The notes under the pieces were generated by a model. That model worked only from the letters and a program-made list of their open reading frames with translations, was not told where the DNA came from and did not search any database. From an uncultured Candidatus Saccharibacteria bacterium (GTDB lineage Bacteria > Patescibacteriota > Doudnabacteria > UBA920), in the NCBI GenBank assembly GCA_964631145.1, contig CAZVXT010000002.1:65140-129139 (forward strand): DNA of 64,000 nucleotides, in the 5' to 3' direction. Position 1 is the stretch's first letter; every line of letters starts with the position of its first letter. Position numbers and translations under genes: made by a program. This document shows positions 7,583-19,680 of this stretch, one piece after another.

Positions 7583-7670
<88 letters not shown>

Positions 7671-13040: not shown

Positions 13041-13631
13041 TTATAAATCAGTTTTTAATCCTATTTCTAACTGCTTGTAAATTTTATATAGATTCGGGTT
13101 TTGTGATTCACTCAATGTAATTTTGCCATATTCCATTACGCCGGCACCGCATTCATTTTTAAATATTTTCCTGAGCTTTATAATGTCTCGGAAAATAAGC
13201 CCATTATTTTTATGACATTTAATTAGAATATCCCGTGCATTTGAAATTGCTGCGCAGCAAGATCCTAATTCTGACTGCTCTATGCAATTAACTATACCTC
13301 TATCTCCAATTGCCAATTTCCATTGATGCTCTGCAATATTTACTGGTATAAATTTAGCCATTCTTTCGGCATGTTTTTTATTTTTATAAACCTCATGTGT
13401 GCTAAATATACAACTGGGATAATTATTGCAATTAAATCGGTTAAGTCGATAACCTTGTAAAATGGAAATGCACTCATCTGAATTTTGAATTACTTCAATT
13501 TGATAAGAAATAATTTGTGCTTTTTTTACAACAGACAAACTTCTAATTTGTTCAATTATCCAAACTTCTTCTAATAGTTTAAATTTGGGTAATTCGTGGT
13601 TTTCAAATTGCGGGATGATAAAATTTATCAT
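13041..13631 (-). CDS. hypothetical Cys-rich protein
   Basis: ORF track; host-like AT-rich composition; a hairpin (13010-13032) lies downstream. Confidence 0.4.
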   Translation of the reverse strand: MINFIIPQFENHELPKFKLLEEVWIIEQIRSLSVVKKAQIISYQIEVIQNSDECISILQGYRLNRFNCNNYPSCIFSTHEVYKNKKHAERMAKFIPVNIAEHQWKLAIGDRGIVNCIEQSELGSCCAAISNARDILIKCHKNNGLIFRDIIKLRKIFKNECGAGVMEYGKITLSESQNPNLYKIYKQLEIGLKTDL

Positions 13632-13787
13632 ATAAATCCTCCTAAGTAGTTTTCCAATATTTTAGTGCAAAATTTACTATGTGTCAACGATTAAAAATAC
13701 TAAGCCATCGCTTAGTATTTTTAATCTATGATTATTTATATTTTTTTTGCAAGTAGTCATTTGTGATACTAATATCACAAATAGCCA

Positions 13788-13809
13788 CTGGCGGAGAGGG
13801 AGGGATTCG
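13788..13809 (-). repeat. 22-bp partial copy of the tRNA-Ser 3' end; direct repeat with 18806-18827 and a putative att-site remnant
   Basis: ctggcggagagggagggattcg is identical to the 3' acceptor/T-arm of the tRNA-Ser at 18807-18900; similarity stops exactly where GC content rises. Confidence 0.7.
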
Positions 13810-14140
13810 GTTACCTCACGCTAGTCTCCTCAACACATTCGTTTTGCTCATAGTGTTTCGTCGACATAACGCTGCGGCAACCACCGACGATTTCAACTTG
13901 CCACTGGCAACTTGAAATCTATTTTCTCATCCCCCAAAACCATAAACTTTTATACCACTTCGTGATATAAAAGTTTATGGCGGTGTATGTGGGTATGGTA
14001 CCCATGGTTACAAGTGTTATAAGGGTATTCTAGCATATTTCTCTTTTTGTTTTTAGGGTTTGTGGGTCGGGGTCTATGTTTTGTAAATGCGACAAATGAG
14101 ACACGAAAAGGGCTTATTTGGCTTTGTCTCAATTACAGAA

Positions 14141-15175
14141 TTATTCAGGCTGGCTTATGCTTTCGCTCAAATCATAAGCATCCCCGTGAGACAATAAACC
14201 CTTATATGATGCGACCAATCTGTCTGTGCGATTTTCAGCAAGTTTCTTAAACATCCTCCTTTTTGTGGAAGTTCTTGGCACCCGATGATGCGGAAAATGC
14301 ACCCAGCCGAGAAAATCGACGCCGGAAGCGAGTGTTTTTATAAACACTTTATCCGGATGGAGCGAGAGCTTTAACTCCGTTTCCAAAAACAGCGATATCT
14401 CAGGTAGTATTTTTTCGAGATACTTTCTATCTTCGTGCAGAATTACGAAATCATTGGCATACCTGATACAGTATTCGGCTTTCAGGTTACGCTTCATATA
14501 GTGATCAAATTCATTCATGTATACATTCACTAAAAGTTGAGACGTGAGATTGCCCAGCGTAAGACCTACGCCGGGTCGGCCGTCAGTATGGAAACTACTG
14601 ATTACATCCCACAAGAGATTTACTGTATTGCCATCCGGCATTCTCCGTCTCAAAATATTAACTAAAACTGTATGATCGATATTGGCGAAGAATTTTCGGA
14701 TATCGCATTTTAAAACCCATATGGTGCGCGTATGATTCTTCGAAACTTTCCGTGCATAGTCGCGGAACCTATCAAGCGCCCGGTGTGTGTCTTTCCCGCG
14801 ACGGCAGGAATAGGAGTCGAAAATAAATTTCTGATCGAAATACGGATACAAGACTCTGTAAATAGCGTGATGAAGGAGGTGACCTCGCACGGTTGCTTTA
14901 TGTATATTGCGCGGCTTCGGATCATTGATGCGGAACGCTGTGTATCCGCCGTGGCGGTAAGTTTTCTCGGCAAGGTCGCTACTAAGGGGAATAATATTAT
15001 CGGTAAACCTAACGGAGAATTTTTTGACGTCTTTGCGGCCGCGCTTGCCTTTGAGGAATTCGCGCCATGCTACAAGCAGGTTTTCCACAGAAATGATATT
15101 ATTATAGGTATGAAAAAATCCGGCATTTCCTCTCTCTCTCTCTCTCGGTGGCGCCTCGATTCTCCAGAGAATCAA
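14141..15175 (-). CDS. diversity-generating retroelement reverse transcriptase; the YxDD box reads YAND
   Basis: N-terminal LLVAWREFLKGKRGRKDVKKF; motif 3 KCDIRKFFANIDH; the DGR-type motif 4 GLTLGNLTSQLL (IGNxxSQ in place of the group II QGxxxSP); RYANDFVIL; lies immediately downstream of the TR on the same strand. Confidence 0.85.
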   Translation of the reverse strand: MILWRIEAPPRERERGNAGFFHTYNNIISVENLLVAWREFLKGKRGRKDVKKFSVRFTDNIIPLSSDLAEKTYRHGGYTAFRINDPKPRNIHKATVRGHLLHHAIYRVLYPYFDQKFIFDSYSCRRGKDTHRALDRFRDYARKVSKNHTRTIWVLKCDIRKFFANIDHTVLVNILRRRMPDGNTVNLLWDVISSFHTDGRPGVGLTLGNLTSQLLVNVYMNEFDHYMKRNLKAEYCIRYANDFVILHEDRKYLEKILPEISLFLETELKLSLHPDKVFIKTLASGVDFLGWVHFPHHRVPRTSTKRRMFKKLAENRTDRLVASYKGLLSHGDAYDLSESISQPE

Positions 15176-15530
15176 AGAGGGATATTTGCTGTGGGTAAGT
15201 ATTGTTCCTCATATTTCCAAAGGCACTCGTTATACGATCGTTTCTAGGATATAAAATAAATTCCTAGACCTTCTTGAGCTTACCCATATCGCTTATTTTA
15301 CCGAAAAAGAAAAGAAAGCGGAAAAAATTTCCGAATGCATTTTAACGCTGGATACGCTCAAATTCTTAGTTGCAGTTGCGTGGGAAGGCAAGCTTGTCAC
15401 TAATAAGCAATGCGAAGAGGTGGCTAGAAAGCTTGAAGAAACCGGCAAGATGTTCCACGGCTGGAAGAAAAATCTGGAAAATCCTGAAAAGAAAAACCGC
15501 GACCTCTAAGATCGCGGAAAAGAAGACAGT

Positions 15531-15662
15531 TTCGAAGGCAGAACACGAACTTGTTGTCCGGATTCCACTCGTTGCCGGGATTCGCCCAATCGTTGTTCAG
15601 CCACAAACCGTCATCGTTGCGTTCGAGGTTGAAAACGTTCGGGTTGCCGTCGGAATCGGTTT
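15531..15662 (-). repeat. DGR template repeat (TR), sense on the minus strand
   Basis: ~130-bp near-copy of the target 3' end; in the VR frame it encodes GNPNVFNLERNDDGLWLNNDWANPGNEWNPDNKFVFCL, which is rich in AAC codons. Confidence 0.8.
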
Positions 15663-15934
15663 GTGCGATGCACCGTCAATACCACTGCCCGCCTGGTGCG
15701 CAGAGCGCAAAAGACTGGGCTGAATTTTATGCGTGATCAAGAATCAGCAAATGCACCACACCAAGTATTTTCTTTTTTTAGACTTTGATATAAATCCTCT
15801 CTGCCAAGCCGTAACCGGGCAGACTCTCAACTCATACAAGCCAGAAAGGTCTTGAAAAGCCGTAGCCGTTCAATACAACCTATCTTTCCGTATTATACCG
15901 CTTGATCTGTATTTTGTACCGCTTTTTTGCTAAA

Positions 15935-17779
15935 ATGAAATTGCATATGGAAAAACACCCGCTTCATCTTAAAAACCCAGAATTGCAGACTTCTCCTGAA
16001 GTCCAGCGTGCTGTCGTGCGCGACGAGCGGGAAAGCGGAGAGAAAGTTCCGAATAATCCATCGGAGCGCATCGAGGCTTACATGGATCGCCTTAAGAATA
16101 TCTTCCTTAATCCAGATCAACGCGTCCGAGAACGCAATCTCGAAATGTTCCGCGACAAGATCTATGACGCGCTTATCATAAAGAAAGAGAATTTCCCTGA
16201 TTCATACTTTGAGCTTCAAAAGCGCATCGCCCGGGAACGAGGCCAGCACATAGAAGAAATTCCCGCAGACGTCCGCGAACAGATAATGGATACCGCGATC
16301 GAAGATCAACGACATTCGCTTGATGCGTGGATGGAGTATCTTACTTCGCCCGATGCTGTTTATCCTGCTTGGTTCAAATACTACGCATGGAATCAGATCA
16401 TCAAACTCTCGCAATTCGACAAGGAACGCGGCGAGTTCAAGACGCGCACAGATTCTACCGTGGCGCCCTTCCCAGATATTTATCGCGAGCCGTTAGCTCA
16501 GATTGCCGATCTTTACGAACGAGTCAAAGACGATAACAAAGATTCCGAGGCCCGCCGAGAATTCGACAAGAAGTTTCCTGCGCTCTATGCCGATCTTATC
16601 TCAAAGTCTCTGGCGGCTTCCATGGAAAACCGCGAGGAAGTGCGCGGAGCGTGGATGAAATACGAACAGGGCGACGGCGAAGCGGCTCAAAAACTATTCC
16701 AGTCTCTTGAAGGAAAAGGAACTGGCTGGTGCACGGCGGGAAAATCGACCGCTGAAACGCAGATAGAATCCGGCGACTTTTATGTCTACTACACCAACGA
16801 TTCAAGCGGTACTCCAACACAGCCGCGCCTCGCTATCCGAATGAACGGACAAAACCAGATCGGAGAGGTGCGAGGCATCCTGCCTTCCCAAGGCGTTGAG
16901 CCGATGATGCAGGAAGTATTGGACGAAAAGCTCGGCGAATTCGGCACCGAAGCTGATGCCTACCGCAAGAAAAGCGAAGATATGCGCATCCTCACGGCTC
17001 TTGAGCGCAAGCATGAAAAAGAGGAGTCATTTACCAAAGAGGATCTTGCGTTTTTGTATGAAATCAATTCTTCAATCGAAGGATTCGGGTACGAGAAAGA
17101 TCCTCGCGTCGCAGAACTTCGACGCGGACGTAATACTGAGGAAGATATACTGGTCATTTTTGAATGCACAAAGGATCAGATCGCTCACATCCCAAGTCAG
17201 ATAACCAAAGACACAAAGGCATATGTCGGCCAGCTTGAGCCAGGCATTTTCCAGAAGCTTCCAGCCACATTGGAACATGTATATACTTCCTTCCCCGACA
17301 AGAAGATATGTAGAGAAAGCGTCGAGGTCGGAGGAAAATCCGCAGAGCAGCTTATCTCCGAAATGGAAGCAGCAGGAATTAATATCAACAGTTATGCTAA
17401 AAGCATGCTGCAAAACTCTGCCGAGTTCATTCCTAGCCCTTATGCCGAAGACATGACGCTCATCCGTCTTACTGTGGAAGATCTTGGTTTCAAAACCAGC
17501 GCAACCACTACACAGGTATTCGAACGAGCCGAAGAACTCGGCCTCGAGTTATGTCCGCCTGATACCGGACCCAGCTACCGCCTTAAATACAAAGACCATC
17601 CTCTTAACGAATGGTTCCGGATCGGGATGAAGCCAATCACCGTTTCCGGCCGCCCGGACGTTTTCTACCTCGGACGCTACGATGACGGTTTGTGGCTGAG
17701 CGGCGGTTGGGCGAATCCCGGCGACGAGTGGCCTCCGGACTACAAGTTCGTGTTCCGCCTTCGCAAGTCTGAAGCTTAG
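15935..17779 (+). CDS. DGR target (variable) protein, 614 aa; no recognisable N-terminal domain and no signal peptide
   Basis: The C-terminal 40 aa are encoded by the VR; GC-rich; start taken as the ATG at 15935 (the track ORF begins at an upstream TTG at 15902); extended -10 tgctaaaat immediately upstream. Confidence 0.8.
   Translation: MKLHMEKHPLHLKNPELQTSPEVQRAVVRDERESGEKVPNNPSERIEAYMDRLKNIFLNPDQRVRERNLEMFRDKIYDALIIKKENFPDSYFELQKRIARERGQHIEEIPADVREQIMDTAIEDQRHSLDAWMEYLTSPDAVYPAWFKYYAWNQIIKLSQFDKERGEFKTRTDSTVAPFPDIYREPLAQIADLYERVKDDNKDSEARREFDKKFPALYADLISKSLAASMENREEVRGAWMKYEQGDGEAAQKLFQSLEGKGTGWCTAGKSTAETQIESGDFYVYYTNDSSGTPTQPRLAIRMNGQNQIGEVRGILPSQGVEPMMQEVLDEKLGEFGTEADAYRKKSEDMRILTALERKHEKEESFTKEDLAFLYEINSSIEGFGYEKDPRVAELRRGRNTEEDILVIFECTKDQIAHIPSQITKDTKAYVGQLEPGIFQKLPATLEHVYTSFPDKKICRESVEVGGKSAEQLISEMEAAGININSYAKSMLQNSAEFIPSPYAEDMTLIRLTVEDLGFKTSATTTQVFERAEELGLELCPPDTGPSYRLKYKDHPLNEWFRIGMKPITVSGRPDVFYLGRYDDGLWLSGGWANPGDEWPPDYKFVFRLRKSEA
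17637..17768 (+). repeat. DGR variable repeat (VR) at the 3' end of the target gene
   Basis: Aligned to the TR: 16 mismatches all at TR adenines (A to C/G/T) and one non-A mismatch in the last 10 nt; encodes TVSGRPDVFYLGRYDDGLWLSGGWANPGDEWPPDYKFVFRLRKSEA. Confidence 0.8.
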
Positions 17780-17849
17780 AAGCTTGGTTTCTTTATAACT
17801 TTTTGATTCTTTGGATCTTGGATACTTTGACCCTTTGGCATTTACTCGC

Positions 17850-17882
17850 GGAGCGAGTCCGCGCAATTTTTTATCATGAACA
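17850..17882 (+). terminator. GC-rich hairpin plus T-tract ~80 bp downstream of the VR; target-gene terminator and/or the DGR-associated 3' hairpin
   Basis: actcgcggagcgagtccgcgcaatttttt, with two alternative 6-bp stems. Confidence 0.5.
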
Positions 17883-18027
17883 AGAAAGCCAAAAAACCGA
17901 AATTTCAATATCCATTTACGGATAAAGAGCATGAGGAATCATGCAAGTTTTTGACTGTTCGTTTAATGAATACTGTATCTGACAAAGGATCAAAGGTTGA
18001 GCTAACTGAAACTATATACACTGGCGG

Positions 18028-18284
18028 AACGTGAAGGGCTAGAAATTGTAACCATGAAGCGCGAAAGCCATTCCGCGAAAGAGACAGGACAAAGACCAGT
18101 GTTCAACGAAATTATTGAGGAGCTAAGGCATGGTAAATATAACGGCATTCTGACATGGGCACCTGATCGTATATCAAGAAACGCTGGTGACCTTGGAAAA
18201 TCGTAGACCTAATGGATGCTGGAAAACTTCATGAAATACGAACTTTCGGGCAAAAGTTCGGCAATAATCCGAACGAGAAATTTC
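18028..18284 (+). pseudogene. serine recombinase fragment (residues ~50-140 of the catalytic domain), frameshifted; left arm of an inverted duplication
   Basis: Translates to LAEREGLEIVTMKREAHSAKETGQRPVFNEIIEELRHGKYNGILTWAPDRISRNAGDLGK(fs)IVDLMDAGKLHEIRTFGQKFGNNPNEKFLVR; ~75% nt identity to the reverse complement of 18285-18540. Confidence 0.6.
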
Positions 18285-18694
18285 TCGTTCGGAGAATTAC
18301 TAAACTTTTGATTGTAGGTTCGTATCTCAACAAGTAAATGGTTTTCCATAAGGTCAACCAACACACCGAGGTCGCCCGCGTTTCTACTTAAGCGATCTGG
18401 ATTCCATGTGAGAATCGCATTGTATTTACCAGCTCTTAATTCTTCAATCATTTGATTAAAGACAGGTCGTTGTCCAGAATTTTTTGCAGAGTGAGCTTCT
18501 TTTCGCACTGTGGCGATATGGAGGTTATCTCGTTCTGCTATTTGCTTCATTTCTTTAAGCTGTGAATCAATAGACAAAGCTTGTCTTTCTTCATCTTCCA
18601 TTGATTTACGAGCATACAAACAGTATCTAATATCGGGAAGGGGTTTATTTGGTAAGGTCGCCTTTCCCTCAGACCTTTTATTTATATTATTCAT
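18285..18694 (-). pseudogene. serine recombinase N-terminal catalytic domain, truncated at a palindromic junction (the track ORF 18209-18694 reads through the junction into the other arm)
   Basis: YARKSMEDEERQALSIDSQ catalytic-serine motif; homology ends at NEKFLVR, where a perfect 24-bp palindrome ccgaacgagaaatttctcgttcgg (18265-18288) joins the arms. Confidence 0.6.
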
Positions 18695-18806
18695 ATACTC
18701 AAACTCTCATTGAAAAGAAAGTTTGAGTCAAACAAAAAAGAACGATCGAGTCGTTCTTTTTTGTCTAAACCCTAGCTTTGTGGGTCACAAAACTAACAGG
18801 TTTTCC

Positions 18807-18900
<94 letters not shown>

Positions 18901-18990
18901 TAAATACTTATATATTTTAGCCGTTATTTTGAGTAAGGTCAATAACTCTTATAAATAGGTGGGAGTGTGTTTATTTAGAGCTCTGACAAA

Positions 18991-19680
18991 TTAATCTTGG
19001 GCAAGAGCAAGACACCAGACCCTCTTTACGCCTGATTGCTTAAGTATTTTTGTGCATTCTAAAAGTGTGCTGCCTGTTGTGATAACATCATCTATCAATA
19101 GGACAAATGAAGGCATGTTGTATTTGGGATTAATAGTAAATGAATTTAAAAGATTGTTTAATCTTTCAGCTTTGCTGAGATCTTTTTGTGATCTCGACTG
19201 CCTCTTTTTAATTAGCAATTCTAAATTATAAAGCTTGAAAAATTTAGATATTGCTTGGCTTATAATAGTACTTTGATTAAATCCTCTAGATTTTAAACTT
19301 CCCTTGGTCATAGGGATGGGGCAAATTGTAAGATGGGGGAGGCTTAGGGTTTTTAGCCGCATTAGAGTAAGTTCGATAAACACATCTTTTAGGTATCTGA
19401 ACTTGGCTCCATTAATTGCTGCTTTAATAATACTATCTTTGTAGGAATAAATAGTAATTAAGCGTTCAGGTGATTGAGATGATTTGCAAGTTTGGTGCGT
19501 GTAACCATCAATGCTTAGTTTGCTACATATTATACATTTTTGTTGAGGTTGTGGTTCAATTGTGTTAATACAATCTTTACAAAAATATAAATCTATAATT
19601 CCACAGCCAAAACAATATTTAGGGAAAATTAAATTTTTAACATAATCTATTGCTTTCATTCTTGTATTGTAAGCGATCAA
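18991..19680 (-). CDS. comF: ComF-family protein (double zinc ribbon plus phosphoribosyltransferase domain)
   Basis: CFGCG...CKDC...CIICS...C; PRTase motif VLLIDDVITTGSTL. Confidence 0.75.
   Translation of the reverse strand: MIAYNTRMKAIDYVKNLIFPKYCFGCGIIDLYFCKDCINTIEPQPQQKCIICSKLSIDGYTHQTCKSSQSPERLITIYSYKDSIIKAAINGAKFRYLKDVFIELTLMRLKTLSLPHLTICPIPMTKGSLKSRGFNQSTIISQAISKFFKLYNLELLIKKRQSRSQKDLSKAERLNNLLNSFTINPKYNMPSFVLLIDDVITTGSTLLECTKILKQSGVKRVWCLALAQD

Follow-up and report, generated by a model that had tools for sequence, protein, structure and literature searches.

The region described here is, with a probability that we put at roughly 80%, a diversity-generating retroelement (DGR) of the CPR type, a type known to be widespread among the CPR bacteria (Patescibacteria), with Architecture B3, located on an island of ~5 kb at a tRNA-Ser(GCU) gene, with decayed mutagenesis machinery and a frozen variable repeat (VR). 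The window, meaning the whole 64-kb stretch of DNA that was analysed, had been given a first-pass annotation that proposed a DGR at this place. That identification holds, since the locus combines a template repeat (TR), an adenine-mutagenised VR at the 3' end of a target open reading frame (ORF) and a DGR-type reverse transcriptase (RT). The features of the locus are as follows.

13788-13809 (no strand): left island boundary, an orphan 22-nt copy of the tRNA-Ser 3' end, CTGGCGGAGAGGGAGGGATTCG, exact direct repeat of 18806-18827
14141-15175 (minus): DGR RT ORF, RVT_1 match at 1.7e-18, 344 aa from TTG 15175
14447-14461 (minus): degenerate catalytic box YANDF, read from the sequence
14537-14557 (minus): LGNLTSQ motif, RT residues 207-213, read from the sequence
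15110-15509 (plus): avd, a bAvd-like accessory gene, disrupted; found by homology to the avd of related locus L002 and by PF22296
15130-15146 (no strand): (CT)8.5 tract, where the 5' regions of avd and RT overlap
15486-15517 (minus): 9-bp stem-loop followed by a U-tract, a terminator-like match with 9 pairs
15529-15660 (minus): AAC-rich TR, from repeat search and alignment
15935-17779 (plus): DGR target gene, ORF of 614 aa, no Pfam, NCBIfam or PADLOC family
17639-17768 (plus): VR at the target gene's 3' end, terminating in an IMH-like sequence, from adenine-specific mismatches
17847-17863 (plus): GC-rich hairpin with T-run, terminator-like, downstream of the target, from the terminator search
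17876-18280 (plus): degraded N-terminal fragment of a serine recombinase, PF00239 Resolvase match at 3.5e-5 on 18054-18206
18209-18694 (minus): truncated serine recombinase, 161 aa, PF00239 match at 5.4e-17
18807-18900 (minus): tRNA-Ser(GCU), putative integration target, from ARAGORN; Rfam tRNA 56.2 bits

Repeat pair, reverse transcriptase and target

The repeat search returned two arms of 120 nt at 15530-15649 and 17647-17766 that are 87% complementary, which confirmed the near-copy of the ORF's 3' end where it had been described. The VR makes up the last 130 nt of the 614-aa ORF and so lies in a protein-coding target, and no TR copy other than the VR was found in the 64-kb window. Both peptides given in the annotation, for TR and VR, were reproduced exactly; in the target frame the TR, with its ten AAC codons, reads T D S D G N P N V F N L E R N D D G L W L N N D W A N P G N E W N P D N K F V F. 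Aligned without gaps over 122 nt (VR 17647-17768), the repeats differ at 17 positions. Fifteen of these are TR adenines (A>G at nine, A>C or A>T at the remainder); adenine supplies 32 of the 122 TR bases (hypergeometric P=9e-9 for the enrichment). The annotation had counted 16 of 17 mismatches at TR adenines, so that its adenine restriction stands and its count is right to within one; the discrepancy comes from the choice of repeat boundaries. Its single non-adenine mismatch becomes two near the 3' end, T>C at 17756 and C>G at 17767. By codon position 1, 2 and 3 the mismatches number 9, 6 and 2, which places 15 of the 17 in positions 1 or 2. Extension of the alignment in the 5' direction requires a 3-nt indel, the VR being one codon short, and brings one further A>T mismatch.

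The same pattern recurs across the family. In ~45 related loci, 773 of 868 TR/VR mismatches fall at a TR adenine, the rest being distributed over C (36), T (32) and G (27) by TR base. Among 48 homologues, the TR Asn codons and part of the remaining A-containing codons reach an entropy of 2.6-3.5 bits, against about 0.15-0.4 for most scaffold positions. The terminal difference between CGCAAG in the VR and CGAAAC in the TR is kept in all relatives examined, and we infer that these ends are the candidate IMH and IMH*, respectively. The C/T difference between the repeats at 17756, by comparison, is private to this copy and un-homogenised.

The RT carries the LGNLTSQ motif that had been reported for it. 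Among PDB structures it matches the Bordetella phage RT (bRT, 8ub7) best, with 120.7 bits and E=7e-34, and no group II or retron-type RT structure exceeds 68.5 bits. It scores 127 bits with the NCBIfam group II intron model TIGR04416 (cutoff 300) and 47.9 bits with the retron model NF038233 (cutoff 235), and in PADLOC a generic RT model reaches 161.9 bits and the best retron-type model, RT_II-A, 46.7 bits. Judged by sequence, with bRT as closest match and a motif of the form [I/L/V]GxxxSQ where other RT classes have a different one, the RT is assigned to the DGR lineage. GTG 15088 (315 aa) is the more likely start codon, over TTG 15175.

These results bear on the possibility that TR and VR are an ordinary, diverged partial gene duplication beside an RT of a retron or group II intron that has nothing to do with them. 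Such an arrangement is favoured by nothing more than the presence of a repeat and of an RVT_1 domain. The adenine-restricted mismatch spectrum, repeated from locus to locus, the RT scores far under both family cutoffs with bRT as best structural-database match, the absence by Rfam of group II intron or retron RNA in 13500-19000, and the presence of an Avd homologue together refute it, and we give it practically no credence. The annotation had named substitutions outside TR adenines and an RT of group II intron or retron class as evidence against a DGR; what we found was substitution at TR adenines in 15 of 17 cases and an RT of neither class.

Contrary to the annotation, which saw no confident avd gene, a homologue of avd is present between TR and RT, antisense to both. 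It was missing from the ORF list because of an in-frame stop inside it. Its conserved body spans 15153-15506 with the stop at 15507-15509, and the ATG farther upstream, at 15110, is in another frame. The gene is 86% identical to the L002 avd, which itself matches PF22296, and with the internal stop masked it scores 48.7 bits against the bAvd model (cutoff 40). The order is thus TR at 15660-15529 (minus), avd at 15153-15509 (plus) and RT at 15175/15088-14141 (minus). This layout had been suggested as unusual and in fact equals the published Architecture B3, TR-(avd)-RT, which Wu et al. (2018, NAR, PMC5758913) report for 90% of CPR DGRs. TR, antisense avd and RT follow in this order in 25/25 complete cassettes among the related contig loci.

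Directly 3' of the TR in the TR RNA lies a stem-loop at 15517-15497, CCGCGATCTTAGAGGTCGCGG, which overlaps the avd stop codon in antisense. It is found in all relatives, with compensatory changes at 5/5 core pairs. Putative Avd-binding stem-loops just downstream of the TR have been described for 207/278 DGRs, including those of CPR, with 9 bp as the commonest stem length (bioRxiv 10.1101/2023.10.23.563531), and the present stem-loop matches this class of candidate Avd-binding elements. The hairpin at 17847-17863 lies ~80 nt past the VR end and is therefore not an IMH-adjacent cruciform.

No member of the target's family, which is very large and conserved (>2,389 homologues in Patescibacteria, >2,000 clusters), has been characterised. 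The family consensus start is ATG 15947, which gives 610 aa. The annotation had asked what fold the C-terminus adopts; in the AF2 model (mean pLDDT 85.8) it is predicted to be C-type-lectin-like, with modest match scores, and the remaining about 450 residues form helical and GNAT-like α/β structure; a confident structural model of the family is now at hand. At the sequence level there is no match to the FGE-sulfatase Pfam family or to any PDB chain. The target had been described as lacking a recognisable domain or signal peptide. Such targets are not unusual, being the norm for CPR DGRs: Roux et al. (2021, PMC8144416) report this of CPR clade 2.

By analogy with the Bordetella phage paradigm and from the conserved anatomy of the family, the following mechanism may be proposed. 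A minus-strand transcript would carry the TR with the stem-loop just downstream, and an RT-Avd complex would copy this TR RNA into cDNA, misincorporating opposite template adenines. The cDNA would then replace the VR that ends the divergent target gene, and would so recode about 15-20 positions, at the TR's Asn/AAC codons and further codons with an A, in the predicted C-type-lectin-like C-terminal domain.

Decay of the mutagenesis machinery

The DGR had been called complete. Its avd, however, carries an in-frame TAA at 15252-15254, where relatives have GAA or GAG, which leaves roughly the first third of Avd. In the RT, N241 aligns to the catalytic D215 of bRT and changes YADD to YAND, whereas all 32 relatives have RY[A/C]DDF at the catalytic box. 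Altogether, five RT columns that are otherwise invariant carry changes private to this copy (D98G, R99H, G129D, P206T and D241N); the four residues besides D241 are invariant in 28 relatives and conserved in bRT. The target, by comparison, has no private substitution at an invariant column. The RT thus lacks an intact YxDD box and several conserved residues, which bears on its activity and not on its ancestry.

Since the source is evidently a metagenome-assembled genome from an uncultured Paceibacterota-like organism, and low-complexity tracts are garbled in some assemblies of related contigs, the avd TAA, RT D241N and the convergent recombinase fragments described below might be suspected as assembly or sequencing artefacts. 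The region recurs in two contigs that were assembled independently from different sequencing runs: L085 has 100% identity to it over 13815-17927, the avd lesion included, and L084 is 99.93% identical over 14265-18755, including the recombinase junction. The decay lesions (avd TAA, YAND and the private RT changes) recur in both, and they are single-base substitutions in non-repetitive sequence. An artefact is therefore very improbable.

With a nonsense codon in avd and an RT that has lost its catalytic Asp and four further invariant residues, the element is probably inactive. We also weighed whether the DGR might be intact and currently active, the avd stop and RT changes being tolerated or compensated by readthrough, an internal start, residual YAND activity or trans-complementation. 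In favour of this, no stop interrupts the RT ORF, the TR and its stem-loop are intact, as are the IMH-like end and the target gene, and the differences between VR and TR at 15-16 adenines mean that homing occurred at some time. Yet Avd is cut short by the nonsense codon after about a third of its length, the catalytic position is occupied by Asn, and four more invariant residues are changed in the RT and none in the target. The window and both independent assemblies share one VR sequence, and one of these assemblies differs by 3 SNPs elsewhere and by none in TR or VR (a comparison of assemblies, not of mapped reads), and the private non-adenine TR/VR difference is still present. The 64-kb window contains no second RT, avd or TR and hence no second cassette. 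Current activity is accordingly unlikely, though it deserves more weight than an artefact.

Comparison with relatives establishes the decayed state of this copy, and its functional consequence we infer: the RT and Avd are probably broken and the variable protein frozen. Given the decayed machinery and the truncated recombinase, the VR would be a frozen record of past mutagenic homing next to an intact target gene. The locus offers a clear natural example of cassette decay with retention of the diversified target gene. This fits the many orphan target homologues without a nearby DGR, found at 10/70 loci that each have at least 3 kb of flank on both sides, and it suggests that proteins diversified by a DGR explore variants for a time and are then often fixed.

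Island boundaries and the avd/RT junction tract

The right copy of the 22-nt direct repeat, 18806-18827, is the 3' end of tRNA-Ser(GCU), and the left copy is identical to both tRNA-Ser genes across exactly 22 nt and diverges beyond. The GC content is 45% on the island (41-50% inside) and about 33-34% in the flanks. The independent contig L085 begins at 13815, beside the left boundary. The best explanation of the sequence is that 13810-18805 is a putatively horizontally acquired ~5-kb island, integrated at the 3' end of tRNA-Ser(GCU). The 161-aa recombinase retains the catalytic Resolvase domain only, without the Recombinase and Zn-ribbon domains, and is not a full large serine recombinase; full-length homologues have 440 aa in L012 and 447 aa in L087 (PF00239, PF07508 and PF13408 in L087). 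The plus-strand fragment matches the minus-strand one at 56-63% (tblastn), the two converge, and inverted repeats I2 and I3 join between them at 18280/18281. No duplicated tRNA end was detectable in relatives beside tRNA genes.

The (CT)8.5 tract, which reads as (CT)n along the avd strand and as (GA)n along that of the RT, is the sole dinucleotide repeat of at least 6 units or long homopolymer in the 64-kb window. In this CPR DGR clade such a tract follows the avd start codon and precedes the conserved Avd body, and on the opposite strand it is just upstream of the RT start. In 32 related loci, 29/31 such tracts sit at the avd/RT junction, where they measure 8 to 43 nt and consist of (CT)n or poly-C. 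We tentatively consider, as a possibility that is more doubtful than not, that the tract is a slipped-strand phase switch: a hypermutable (CT)n/poly-C tract may turn Avd, and hence targeted hypermutation, on and off. It would then be a contingency locus controlling a mutator. The conserved tract of variable length at the avd/RT junction is a testable candidate for on/off control of hypermutation, of which no description was found in the searchable literature. In a related and equally tentative reading, DGR, target and serine recombinase would form a minimal ~5-kb tRNA-targeting integrative element, which would spread the target family horizontally across Patescibacteria.

Comparison with known systems

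Like tRNA-targeting islands with large serine recombinases, the present island is integrated at the 3' end of a tRNA gene, has a second copy of that end at its other boundary, carries a recombinase beside the tRNA and deviates in GC content. It differs in being very small (5 kb), in having DGR and target as its sole cargo and in its truncated recombinase. Compared with TvpA of Treponema denticola and other variable proteins of the C-type-lectin/FGE fold, the target has no sequence match, and the rest of the protein (~450 residues) is unrelated.

The DGR of Bordetella phage BPP-1 (mtd-avd-TR-brt) is the mechanistic prototype. The two RTs are homologous over nearly their full length and share the [I/L]GxxxSQ motif, and both systems have an Avd homologue, adenine-specific transfer from TR to VR, a stem-loop directly 3' of the TR and differing TR and VR 3' ends (IMH* versus IMH, here candidates). 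In contrast to BPP-1, avd is on the opposite strand between TR and RT, so that the sequence 3' of the TR, the position of the BPP-1 Sp spacer, overlaps avd in antisense. The element is chromosomal, on an island rather than in a phage, its target is not a tail fibre, and no GC-rich cruciform directly follows the candidate IMH.

The closest likeness is to the CPR DGRs of Architecture B3 (PMC5758913; clade 2, PMC8144416), with the same order and strands of TR, reverse-strand avd and RT, a Patescibacteria-type host, a target without recognisable domain or transmembrane segment, an AAC-rich TR and a VR at the target C-terminus. Membership of DGR clade 2 is presumed from taxonomy, not from a tree. 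This copy differs by the inactivating-looking mutations in avd and RT. Its module lies upstream of the target in inverted orientation, an arrangement shared by 3/25 complete relatives, whereas 19/25 have it downstream and co-oriented. The element is an ordinary member of a DGR class catalogued since 2017-2018, and knowledge of DGRs is therefore unchanged by this copy.

Template bias and the class of the reverse transcriptase

A repeat search recovered an inverted pair of 120 nt (15530-15649 and 17647-17766, 87% complementary), in agreement with the existence and location of the repeats that the first-pass annotation had read as the template repeat (TR) and variable repeat (VR) of a diversity-generating retroelement (DGR). 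The peptides it had given for the two copies were reproduced exactly on re-translation.

Features of the region, in window coordinates
13788-13809: exact 22-nt copy of the tRNA-Ser(GCU) 3' end, left boundary
14141-15175, minus strand: reverse transcriptase (RT) ORF with an RVT_1 domain and the motif LGNLTSQ
15130-15146, avd strand: (CT)8.5 tract, flanked by an ATG and the conserved Avd body
15153-15506, plus strand: avd body, with its stop codon at 15507-15509
15517-15497 and onward, minus strand: 9-bp stem-loop, then a U-tract, directly 3' of the TR in the RNA sense
15529-15660, minus strand: TR
15935-17779, plus strand: target ORF (614 aa), with the VR (17639-17768) at its 3' end
18807-18900, minus strand: tRNA-Ser(GCU), right boundary

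Aligned in the target sense, TR and VR differed at 17 of 122 ungapped positions, and at 15 of these the TR copy carried A and the ORF copy G, C or T. With A making up 32 of the 122 TR bases, the probability of 15 out of 17 mismatches falling on A is 9e-9. Codon positions 1 or 2 took 15 of the 17. The two mismatches at other bases were T>C at 17756, found in the window only among the relatives examined, and C>G at 17767. Extending the homology in the 5' direction to 15660 and 17639 added a 3-nt indel, which leaves the VR one codon short, and one extra A>T change. The earlier count of 16 of 17 mismatches at adenines was thus correct to within one, but it had passed over the indel and the second mismatch at a base other than A. 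We considered the indel as a sign of decay and rejected this, since such indels are a known outcome of DGR activity. The realignment kept substitution concentrated at template adenines. The same bias was seen in related loci. A scan of species-representative genomes found a relative in at least 196 genomes, from which 80 loci were kept and a TR was located in approximately 45; summed over the loci with a TR, mismatches fell at 773 A, 36 C, 32 T and 27 G of the template. In every relative examined the TR ended in …CGAAAC and the VR in …CGCAAG, and the constancy of these ends indicates that the boundary is conserved and IMH*/IMH-like.

The RT scored 127 bits against the NCBIfam group II intron RT (cutoff 300) and 47.9 bits against the retron RT (cutoff 235). 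Its best match among solved structures, near full length at 120.7 bits, was 8ub7, the Bordetella phage DGR reverse transcriptase (bRT), while group II or retron-type RTs reached at most 68.5 bits. Since it fell below both cutoffs and matched bRT best, we classed the enzyme as a DGR RT, neither group II intron nor retron. The region is a genuine DGR.

Lesions in the module and its island

The first-pass annotation had called this DGR complete and had found no confident avd gene. Neither statement held. In L002, a related locus, the 106-aa gene between RT and target has a precomputed match to PF22296 (bAvd), and tblastn located a plus-strand sequence 86% identical to it in the window. avd is therefore present, between TR and RT on the opposite strand. 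It was absent from the ORF list because its reading frame holds a stop codon: at 15252-15254 the window has TAA, and relatives GAA or GAG. With this stop masked, the sequence scored 48.7 bits against a Pfam bAvd gathering score of 40.

The RT is altered at its catalytic box, which reads RYANDF in the window and RY[A/C]DDF in 32 of 32 relatives. The YMDD of bRT sits at D215/D216, residues that have been named as catalytic (bioRxiv 10.1101/2023.10.23.563531), and N241 of the window RT aligns with the catalytic aspartate D215. In a leave-one-out comparison of 29 RTs, the window enzyme carried private substitutions at five otherwise invariant columns (D98G, R99H, G129D, P206T and D241N), all of which are also conserved in bRT. 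Only one related locus, L080, had more private RT changes; its avd is also broken and no TR was detected there. A frameshifted RT start codon in the window was considered as well and dropped, since starts differ among relatives, some using an upstream ATG and others the GTG of 'SVENLL', which the window keeps.

Two Logan contigs from other runs cover the region independently. L085 was 100% identical over 13815-17927, and L084 showed three SNPs over 14265-18755, none of them in TR or VR, so that the VR is the same in all three sequences. Since the lesions were reproduced in these contigs, assembly errors are ruled out.

The cassette segment has 45% GC in a surrounding genome of 33-34%, and lies between tRNA-Ser(GCU) and the exact copy of that gene's 3' end. 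A 161-aa N-terminal fragment of a serine recombinase adjoins the tRNA gene and is met head-on by a second, degraded recombinase fragment at a near-palindromic junction (18280/18281). The two fragments (17876-18694) share 71% DNA identity and are cut at the same homologous position. Recovery of the junction in L084 indicates a real rearrangement and no assembly chimera. Intact recombinases at the equivalent position in relatives are 440-447 aa long (L012, 2346-3668; L087, 254-1597). The region is a small integrated island that now carries a defective integrase.

A tRNA gene abuts the cassette in 8 of 31 relatives scanned (L001, L003, L012, L013, L017, L045, L078 and L079), several of which keep an intact recombinase of 440-447 aa. 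Counting the window, the tRNA gene points its 3' end toward the cassette at 8 of the 9 sites. This pattern suggests that DGR and target travel together as a minimal integrative element. No duplicated tRNA end was found at the far side of the cassette in the 8-9 tRNA-adjacent relatives, so that the evidence for a tRNA direct-repeat island comes from the window only. The tRNA-Ser genes of the window at 7583-7670 and 18807-18900 (UGA and GCU anticodons) have an identical 3' end, the 22-nt att-like core followed by AACCCTCGG. This shared end makes the former a second potential integration site, unoccupied and approximately 11 kb away.

Searching the 64-kb window gave no further RT, avd, TR or target. 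We infer an end to mutagenic homing and a frozen VR, with residual activity or complementation in trans from beyond the window as possibilities. The nonsense codon in avd, the RYANDF box and the four further private RT changes contradict the description of the element as complete; most likely the DGR machinery is dead and the island immobilised. Elsewhere in the clade, the RT of L016 has an in-frame stop, and avd is interrupted by stops in L073 and L080. Decay of the cassette seems to be recurrent in this clade.

The avd/RT junction tract and the target family

The (CT)8.5 tract is the only one of its kind in the 64-kb window. Such tracts read as (GA)n or poly-G on the RT strand, where they immediately precede the RT start. 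Relatives carry (CT)n or poly-C of 8-43 nt. The 32 related loci together span 372 kb and hold 31 tracts of this kind, 29 of them at the avd/RT junction. The tract was noted at ~7180-7215 in L001/L002 and at the avd/RT junctions of L003 and L087-L090. Of the 8 loci with a short tract or none, 6 have the ATG in frame with avd, against only 7 of the 18 in which the tract measures at least 10 nt. A near-identical pair of MAGs had as its sole difference C9(TC)7, in frame, versus C9(TC)11, out of frame, and in another lineage C11 and C14 were in frame and C10 out of frame. Poly-C lengths are partly garbled in short-read assemblies (L088, L089), and we therefore weighed only how L001 and L002 differ in (CT)n, together with the C10/C11/C14 cases, which are clean. 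Contig breaks or garbled poly-C/G occur at the tract in L088 (~1360-1395) and L089 (~1200-1215), which belong to the same lineage, and are consistent with sequencing difficulty or with heterogeneity of tract length within a sample. Judged from sequence, the tract could be the signature of a slipped-strand contingency locus, a candidate phase-variation switch turning Avd and DGR activity on or off. No description of it was found in the literature searched, and the tract or the target family may have been described earlier in the primary CPR DGR paper (Paul et al. 2017).

Homologues of the target number more than 2,389; the closest are 75-86% identical, and their named sources are Paceibacterota, Minisyncoccia or Patescibacteria. 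No homologue has a Pfam domain, and searches of Pfam, NCBIfam, PADLOC and PDB sequences, including one with a 129-sequence profile, returned no match at E values up to 10. Pfam did not bear out the 'PcfJ-like' lead taken from Wu et al., whose sole trace was a weak BFVD match (E 0.49). In a 48-homologue alignment of the C-terminal segment, column entropy was ~0.15-0.4 bits at most scaffold positions and peaked at 2.6-3.5 bits at the Asn positions of the window TR and at some other A-containing codons. None of the 48 invariant columns was changed in the window target. AF2 modeling from a shallow alignment of close homologues was unusable (pLDDT 57); after distant homologues were added, the 129-sequence alignment gave a mean pLDDT of 85.8, with values above 90 over most of the C-terminal ~150 residues. 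The best PDB matches of this model in Foldseek were all C-type lectin CRDs, at E 0.16 or worse, and the predicted structure makes a C-type-lectin-like VR domain plausible.

Ten target homologues (L005, L007, L008, L020, L042, L057, L065, L072, L076 and L082) stood alone, with at least 3 kb of sequence on each side free of RT, avd and TR. One such homologue, P0093 (L086), lies among the housekeeping genes PfkB and transketolase; identical copies are indexed in 71 of the collection's blocks, and 24 contigs were examined. The target family is often retained without its DGR.

Module layout and comparison with known DGRs

All 25 complete cassettes on genome contigs had the order TR, antisense avd, RT. 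Relative to the target, the module was downstream and co-oriented in 19, inverted upstream in 3 and inverted downstream in 3; the window has the inverted upstream arrangement. The stem-loop was found in all relatives, with compensatory changes at 5 of 5 core pairs. In antisense, it overlaps with the stop codon of avd. Apart from the tRNA, searching the island with Rfam gave no known RNA family. A putative Avd-binding stem-loop just downstream of the TR, most commonly with a 9-bp stem, has been described in 207 of 278 Avd-containing DGRs, CPR ones included (bioRxiv 10.1101/2023.10.23.563531), and the window stem-loop matches this class in place and stem length.

The interest of the region lies mainly in decay with the target kept, in a target family that is very large and uncharacterised, and in the candidate phase-variation tract. 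Its layout and domain-less target had been taken as unusual, but both are the published norm. Patescibacteria DGRs form a separate clade 2, whose targets are typically without a recognisable transmembrane or conserved domain (Roux et al. [quoted passage not shown] 2018, PMC5758913). By these descriptions, the features that had seemed striking are those of the group as a whole. The window shares with Architecture B3 the order TR, antisense avd, RT, and the element is a typical member of this well-catalogued CPR class.
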